Shown here piece by piece: positions 17,809 through 17,858 of a stretch of 64,000 nt of DNA. The position numbers were made by a program, and so were the translations under genes. The stretch covers positions 1 through 64,000 of IMG/VR virus record IMGVR_UViG_2974630879_000001; one strand, 5' to 3'. The notes beneath the pieces were generated by a model, which was given only the letters and a program-made list of their open reading frames with translations, made no database searches and was not told the origin of the DNA. The DNA is from a virus (taxonomy: Duplodnaviria; Caudoviricetes). Position 1 is the first letter of the stretch. Every line of letters starts with the position of its first letter.

Positions 17809-17858
17809 GCCAATCTGATGAGTCCGTTAGGACGAAACACACTCTGTGTGTAATTGGC
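17809..17858 (+). ncRNA. Hammerhead ribozyme (type I; predicted cleavage after GUA, between 17852 and 17853)
   Basis: GCCAAT-CTGATGA-GTCC(GTTA)GGAC-GAAA-CACAC(TCT)GTGTG-TA-ATTGGC: full consensus core with all three stems paired. Confidence 0.92.

Follow-up and report, generated by a model that had tools for sequence, protein, structure and literature searches.

A complete type I hammerhead ribozyme motif within the non-coding RNA and tRNA island of an N4-like phage

What would a hammerhead ribozyme do in a lytic tailed phage, at a point where a block of protein-coding genes gives way to an array of non-coding RNAs and tRNAs, and is the motif found there a genuine ribozyme? The locus lies in IMG/VR record IMGVR_UViG_2974630879_000001, a 76,335-bp virus genome with direct terminal repeats; positions 1 to 64,000 of this record are the stretch of DNA analysed here, referred to as the window. 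The phage is N4-like. Its hallmarks are two N4-type RNA polymerase II subunits (5198-7890), a 3442-aa ORF of the size of a virion RNA polymerase on the minus strand (42106-52434), and genes for rIIA and ThyX. The plus strand carries every gene between 5 and 41 kb as well as all the tRNAs.

An original prediction, made by reading the sequence, had placed a complete hammerhead with all conserved core nucleotides at 17809-17858. Every element of it was recovered at its position, exact to the base:

17809-17858, plus strand: complete type I hammerhead ribozyme of 50 nt with stem I open, as seen in the sequence, the descriptor, the MFE fold and covariance model R1
17809-17814, plus strand: 5' strand of stem I, GCCAAU, forming six Watson-Crick pairs with 17853-17858
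17815-17821, plus strand: catalytic core C3 to A9, CUGAUGA, exact consensus
17822-17833, plus strand: stem II hairpin GUCC-GUUA-GGAC, 4 bp, with closing pair G10.1-C11.1
17834-17836, plus strand: core G12, A13 and A14, exact consensus
17837-17851, plus strand: stem III hairpin ACACAC-UCU-GUGUGU, 6 bp with a 3-nt loop, including A15.1-U16.1 (A17837-U17851)
17852-17853, plus strand: predicted scissile bond between A17 (17852) and A1.1 (17853), positioned from hammerhead numbering
17853-17858, plus strand: 3' strand of stem I, AUUGGC, 6 nt with which the predicted 3' product also begins

All 11 of the 11 invariant core positions are present, together with the A15.1-U16.1 pair and an acceptable H17 (A17852, not G), and the cleavage triplet is GUA (17850-17852). 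The three helices (6/4/6) contain 16 bp, all of them Watson-Crick and with zero defects. The MFE fold of the 50-mer is the hammerhead secondary structure (-16.3 kcal/mol, z -3.25), and the hammerhead fold is also found in the MFE structure of the nascent RNA 17592-17858. The site is assigned to type I because stem I is the open helix, and our own descriptor places it in the same type, with stems II and III closed by loops. Judged by its sequence and fold, the site at 17809-17858 is an intact and genuine hammerhead of type I that lies on the transcribed strand and is predicted to self-cleave.

Cleavage by hammerheads leaves a 2',3'-cyclic phosphate on the 5' product and a 5'-OH on the 3' product, and contact of stem I with stem II or its loop gives these ribozymes fast cleavage at physiological Mg2+. 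Inspection by eye identified no stem I/stem II tertiary contact, pseudoknot or internal loop in the window hammerhead; therefore, it may act as a slow 'minimal' hammerhead at cellular Mg2+.

The motif is not a chance match. The descriptor, which specifies CUGANGA, a stem II hairpin, GAA, a stem III hairpin closed by an A-U pair, H17 and stem I, has a single match in the 64-kb window, at 17809-17858. Even a looser version that accepts stems of at least 4/3/3 bp returned only 23 matches in 2000 random 64-kb windows generated with a first-order Markov model, or 0.0115 per 64 kb on both strands, and the observed 6/4/6-bp arrangement is rarer by chance than these looser matches. A covariance model (R1) built from 26 type I hammerheads of unrelated IMG/VR contigs, with the window outside the seed, gave 17809-17858 a full-length score (model positions 1-52) of 43.1 bits (E 4.5e-13); the second-best site within the window reached 11.6 bits. 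R1 had no match in the remaining 12 kb of the genome, and the hammerhead is thus single-copy in the 76-kb genome.

The original prediction had also named a search with hammerhead models as a check, and here the outcome was divided, with clear support from R1 but not from Rfam. At Rfam gathering thresholds only tRNAs were reported in the window, and none of the hammerhead families of clan CL00010 was reached. The best Rfam hammerhead match was to RF00008 (type III), at 25.0 bits (E 0.006) versus a gathering score of 48.5, in a permuted alignment that comprised the core and stem II only; RF00163 (type I), run on the whole genome, found nothing at the hammerhead locus. Phage PaP3 offers a point of reference, since an active intergenic hammerhead has been published for it (PMC3088659). 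In the PaP3 genome (L152, NC_004466) we found a type I hammerhead match at 44035-44112 on the minus strand, between orf66 and orf67, that scores 29.8 bits on R1; this match, which may not be the published one, is likewise below Rfam gathering. Because the PaP3 type I match fails gathering too, the Rfam result reflects the models and not the motif, and current Rfam models seem to under-detect phage type I hammerheads.

The window hammerhead belongs to a class that is widespread in viral contigs. An IMG/VR scan for CUGAUGAGUCC...GGACGAAAC returned at least 119 loci, and 113 of the 119 loci listed are complete type I or type III hammerheads by our own descriptor, including at least 147 type I copies. 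Among the matches listed, the typical member is 49-52 nt long with a 6-bp stem I, and the cleavage triplet is GUC in 92% and GUA in 5%. Two sub-classes can be distinguished in the same set: in one, loop II starts with U (UNAAU and similar) and the positions flanking stem I are A in 84-87%, and the other has a G-start tetraloop as loop II and non-A flanks. With its GUUA loop and U/U flanks, the window hammerhead fits the second. It resembles the class of about 50 nt as a whole in its length of 50 nt, its 6/4/6-bp stems and its GUCC...GGAC stem II, and differs from it in having GUA instead of GUC, a 3-nt loop on stem III, and one copy versus the 2-8 found in many contigs.

Many of the listed contigs carry 2-8 copies with a single stem I sequence per contig, often directly upstream of a ribosome-binding site. 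The clearest cases are six contigs (L069, L096, L106, L113, L116 and L130) with 4-8 type I hammerheads each, in which stem I is identical and stems II and III vary. Many of these copies lie immediately upstream of AAGGA-type ribosome-binding sites; therefore, every mRNA would begin with the same 5'-OH hexamer. A different arrangement occurs in the 'CUGUCU...AGACAG' lineage (L014, L035, L051, L083 and L105), where CAAGA and then CUGUC come after AGACAG, the 3' strand of stem I. Since CUGUC is a second, partial copy of the 5' strand, the cleaved RNA can form a 5'-terminal hairpin before the gene start. In sister contigs (L013, L031, L041, L076, L101 and L118) the same hammerhead is followed by a conserved structured RNA of about 120 nt in tRNA clusters. 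The RNA conserved downstream of 'CUGUCU' hammerheads was modelled as an HMM, which matched its own lineage only and nothing in the window.

The genomic region around the window hammerhead is poor in coding sequence. The ORF for a 136-aa protein stops at 17591, and the interval 17592-20295 has no credible ORF; small ORFs in this island, on either strand, gave no PHROG match. The following elements were identified in and next to the island:

17603-17772, plus strand: RNA-like element of 170 nt whose terminal stem, GGATTACCTAG / CTAGGTAATCC, is a perfect 11 bp and precedes G-CCA, seen in the sequence, with the stem present in the fold
17781-17806, plus strand: GC-rich hairpin of 10 bp with no U-tract, 2 nt upstream of stem I, seen in the sequence and present in all folds
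17853-18208, plus strand: structured RNA of 356 nt, ORF-free, up to the 5' end of tRNA-Met (fold z -2.68)
18209-19515, plus strand: seven tRNA genes, for Met, Ile, Tyr, Ser, Pro, Thr and Gln (ARAGORN and Rfam)
20260-20299, plus strand: intrinsic-terminator-like hairpin with a T-run, which closes the ORF-free island

The hammerhead had been described as standing at the head of the tRNA cluster, where it would separate the RNA island from the upstream mRNA. A cut at 17852/17853 would indeed fall between the coding genes and the tRNA genes, but the island itself starts at 17592. The 170-nt CCA-ended element follows directly on the 136-aa ORF and lies on the 5' side of the predicted cut, and because this RNA and the GC hairpin precede the hammerhead, the ribozyme is inside the island and not at its head. 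The RNA of about 355 nt that had been proposed to run from the cut to tRNA-Met agrees well with the 356 nt found, an ORF-free and structured segment whose 5' end would be set by the predicted cleavage. This segment matches no Rfam family and has no tRNA features.

A scan of 16500-20500 for terminator-like sites did not return the GC hairpin at 17781-17806, which could possibly protect the 3' end of the upstream product. Sigma-70-like promoters were not found in the same interval (0 versus 3.1 expected), a result that is uninformative because the phage uses its own RNA polymerases. The composition profile of the region is flat, with no signal of a foreign insert.

We propose that the most likely role of the ribozyme, with a probability of roughly 0.7, is cleavage of the rightward transcript within the ORF-free island, which would uncouple the mRNA from the RNA and tRNA array. 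From the arrangement of the genes, the island is probably co-transcribed with the upstream ORFs. The 50-nt motif would fold as RNA polymerase leaves 17858, and the cut would occur between A17852 and A17853. The resulting 5' fragment would consist of the upstream mRNA, the 170-nt CCA-ended RNA, the GC hairpin and the body of the ribozyme, and would end in a 2',3'-cyclic phosphate. The 3' fragment would start with 5'-OH-AUUGGC and may refold into a 5'-terminal stem (17856-17860 with 17901-17905), and RNase P cleavage at tRNA-Met would set the other (3') end of the 356-nt RNA. RNase E prefers a 5'-monophosphate. Decay of the 3' fragment may be slowed by the 5'-OH together with the stem next to it, and decay of the 5' fragment by the cyclic phosphate and the neighbouring hairpin. 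In this way the coding part and the array of non-coding RNA and tRNAs could have separate fates, and the ribozyme would fix one RNA end without any protein.

Hammerheads near tRNAs in other phage contigs bear on this proposal. Among the matches listed, a tRNA is found no more than 300 nt away from 14 of the 147 type I copies, versus 3.3% expected from base coverage (binomial p 4e-4); several of the 14 come from one lineage, which makes the counts non-independent. In all 14 cases the hammerhead and the tRNA share a strand. In two contigs (L073:8394-8525 and L077:6478-6756) a type I hammerhead is fused to tRNA-Tyr(GUA). The cut site, GUC/G, coincides with base 1 of the tRNA, and the acceptor stem begins with the 3' strand of stem I. 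Two hammerhead units occur in tandem in L077; the first precedes a tRNA-Tyr-like sequence that ARAGORN does not call, and here too the cut site coincides with base 1 of that sequence. As judged from their sequences, these junctions would give tRNA 5' ends without RNase P, bearing a 5'-OH. In the papers searched we found no description of hammerhead/tRNA-Tyr fusions or of hammerhead/tRNA junctions in tailed phages, nor a report of a hammerhead in an N4-like phage. These junctions and the 'CUGUCU' lineage indicate that phages employ type I hammerheads to generate 5' ends that are defined and structured, and these cases are the best available support for the role proposed in the window. As in L073 and L077, the window has a type I hammerhead on the tRNA strand in a tRNA cluster, and the 3' strand of its stem I starts a downstream structured RNA; the difference is that the first tRNA is 356 nt downstream, versus a cut at G1 of tRNA-Tyr in those contigs.

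The distribution of the hammerhead among relatives is sporadic. DNA comparison with GenBank phages (megablast and blastn) revealed none that carries this hammerhead; the nearest deposited relative is Xanthomonas virus PB119 (Schitoviridae, Pokkenvirus), which has a gene order in common with the window (679-aa ORF, 136-aa ORF, tRNA cluster). The PB119 spacer can be aligned with the window solely at tRNA-Met, and PB119 lacks a hammerhead at this locus despite its tRNA island and gene order. No hammerhead was found at the position in 20 loci reached through the 136-aa neighbour protein (39-52% identity; 9 viral and 11 metagenome contigs, with at least one contig present in both sets), in 7 loci reached through the 681-aa neighbour protein, or in six whole related virus records. 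In total, about 26 relatives were checked, and 0 have a hammerhead at this position, including those with neighbour proteins at 37-52% identity; most of them are also without tRNAs at the locus. Because these relatives do without it, the hammerhead is clearly dispensable for this phage group. Exact-pattern scans of viral contigs likewise revealed no other contig with the same stem I and core or the same stem II and loop.

In the related N4-like contig L136, whose neighbour protein is 44% identical, an ORF-poor stretch harbours a weaker type I hammerhead (stems of 4/5/5 bp, 22.8 bits) that begins about 1.25 kb past the homologous ORF, on its downstream side. The stem III of this hammerhead, ACACA/UGUGU, is similar to that of the window hammerhead, a similarity from which descent from a common ancestor is not demonstrable. 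A T-arm-like GGGTTCAAATCCC motif precedes this hammerhead (L136:4600-4711). Neither ARAGORN nor Rfam found a tRNA in the ORF-poor 3 kb, and the stretch may be a degenerate or non-canonical tRNA-like island.

This distribution would be expected if the ribozyme were an intact but neutral passenger, either a recent arrival by recombination with another phage RNA module or the relic of a larger cassette, which may cleave without benefit to the phage. The absence of the hammerhead from PB119 and from all other relatives checked, together with stem I/core and stem II/loop sequences seen in no other viral contig scanned, favours such an origin, and an additional 'empty' hairpin at 17909-17926, described below, could be a remnant of a rearrangement. 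We nevertheless consider a neutral passenger unlikely. There is no defect in the core positions or in any of the 16 base pairs, the orientation matches transcription, the site is in a non-coding island as for many other phage hammerheads, and base composition gives no indication of a foreign insert.

Cutting of the rightward transcript remains our preferred role. Two further elements downstream of the hammerhead are relevant to its folding in context:

17856-17905, plus strand: predicted competitor helix GGCUG (17856-17860) / CAGCC (17901-17905), from folding, which shares bases with the 3' half of the 3' strand of stem I
17909-17926, plus strand: hairpin GCCAAUG-CGAU-CAUUGGC, seen in the sequence, which repeats both strands of stem I

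Stem III has a predicted pairing probability of 0.95-0.96 across all contexts tested. The predicted probability of stem I is 0.5-0.9 in transcripts ending at 17858-17890, with 0.89 right after synthesis, and it falls to 0.02 or less once 17905-17910 is included. The full-context MFE structure lacks stem I by a margin of only 1.5 kcal/mol. In the MFE structure of the 3' product, the 17856-17860/17901-17905 helix is the 5'-terminal stem and leaves only AUU unpaired. For 68-69 other phage hammerheads the median stem I probability is 0.14-0.23 just after synthesis and 0.03-0.06 with 60-100 nt of downstream sequence. The late drop is therefore generic, as most other phage hammerheads show a comparable one, and the model indicates that the window ribozyme is, if anything, better folded than most in the first 30 nt after synthesis (0.89).

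The hairpin at 17909-17926 had been reported in the original prediction as a recurrence of the stem I pair, and it is present in the sequence. Three of 141 hammerheads, versus 0.15 in controls, have a same-stem 'empty' hairpin no more than 400 nt away, and these are in the window and in L074 only. In L074 the hairpin, CTCCA-C...GTC-TGGAG, is located between the two hammerheads of that contig (about 7161-7806). Such hairpins may be hammerhead remnants that lack a core, or ancestral hairpins that received a core insertion.

The recurrence of both stem I strands about 50 nt downstream had led to the suggestion that swapped pairing tunes cleavage. More broadly, the ribozyme could be conditional, with its stem I strands pairing either with 17909-17926 or with CAGCC at 17901-17905 and thereby setting the fraction of transcripts that are cut. 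The fall in predicted stem I probability from about 0.9 to 0.02 or less when 17901-17905 is present, and the small energy margin in full context, are compatible with a switch of this kind. The suggested swap does not hold up in folding, since pairing of stem I with 17909-17926 is 4.8 kcal/mol worse than the hammerhead plus the separate hairpin, and the predicted competitor is the 17856-17860/17901-17905 helix instead. Furthermore, the drop is not specific to this locus given the comparable values for most of the 68-69 other phage hammerheads, and no ligand-binding or protein-binding element was identified. A conditional ribozyme is accordingly very unlikely.

The weakest alternative, a chance consensus match or a by-product of the 54-aa minus-strand ORF at 17789-17953 without RNA function, could draw on the Rfam scores below gathering and on the overlap of this ORF with the hammerhead, but it is effectively refuted by the expected number of matches per window and the R1 E value given above, while PHROG gave no significant match to the ORF (E 0.05), which opposes all neighbouring genes, and the PaP3 type I match is below Rfam gathering as well.

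Cleavage inside the island, the preferred role, can be extended to a more specific and speculative model. Here the hammerhead and RNase P would together excise a new structured phage RNA of 356 nt from an 'RNA operon', and the three copies of stem I sequence would form a post-cleavage refolding device, in which the freed 5' end re-pairs downstream and locks the RNA into a functional and nuclease-resistant shape. The locus would then be one instance of a general phage strategy, in which type I hammerheads make the 5' ends of tRNAs and tRNA-linked RNAs. We hold this extended model only tentatively and regard it as rather doubtful; we found no description of such a strategy in the papers searched.

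The window hammerhead adds a further case to a ribozyme class that has been known in phages since 2011 (PMC3088659), and is not a new kind of element. In E. coli and in vitro, cleavage of polycistronic transcripts has been shown for hammerheads of phages and prophages (Perreault 2011, PMC3088659). The window hammerhead shares with those type I ribozymes (PMC3088659; clan CL00010: RF00163, RF00008 and RF02276) an identical core, the three-helix junction and an open stem I, as well as an intergenic position in a phage transcript and a proposed role in cutting long phage RNA. Unlike them, it is a single copy and not one of several flanking genes, it occurs in a lytic phage of the N4-like (Schitoviridae) type, it scores below Rfam gathering, and it is located in a non-coding RNA and tRNA island, not beside integrase or ardA-type genes.

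Another small self-cleaving ribozyme is linked to tRNA genes of tailed phages. HDV-like theta ribozymes adjoin these tRNAs and are proposed to process tRNA transcripts without host nucleases (Kienbeck et al. 2024, PMC10879173). They differ from the window hammerhead in class and fold and are found directly 3' of tRNAs, where they trim trailers, and that paper makes no mention of hammerheads.

The function of bacterial and phage hammerheads has been a standing question since their discovery in 2011 (PMC3088659; reviewed in PMC6765202), and the locus described here is a clean single-copy test case. As the ribozyme lies between a coding block and an RNA and tRNA array, how a single cut affects RNA stability and the supply of tRNAs is directly measurable. 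Together with the exact hammerhead/tRNA-Tyr junctions of other contigs, the window hammerhead supports the idea that self-cleaving RNAs may process phage tRNA-linked transcripts independently of host nucleases.
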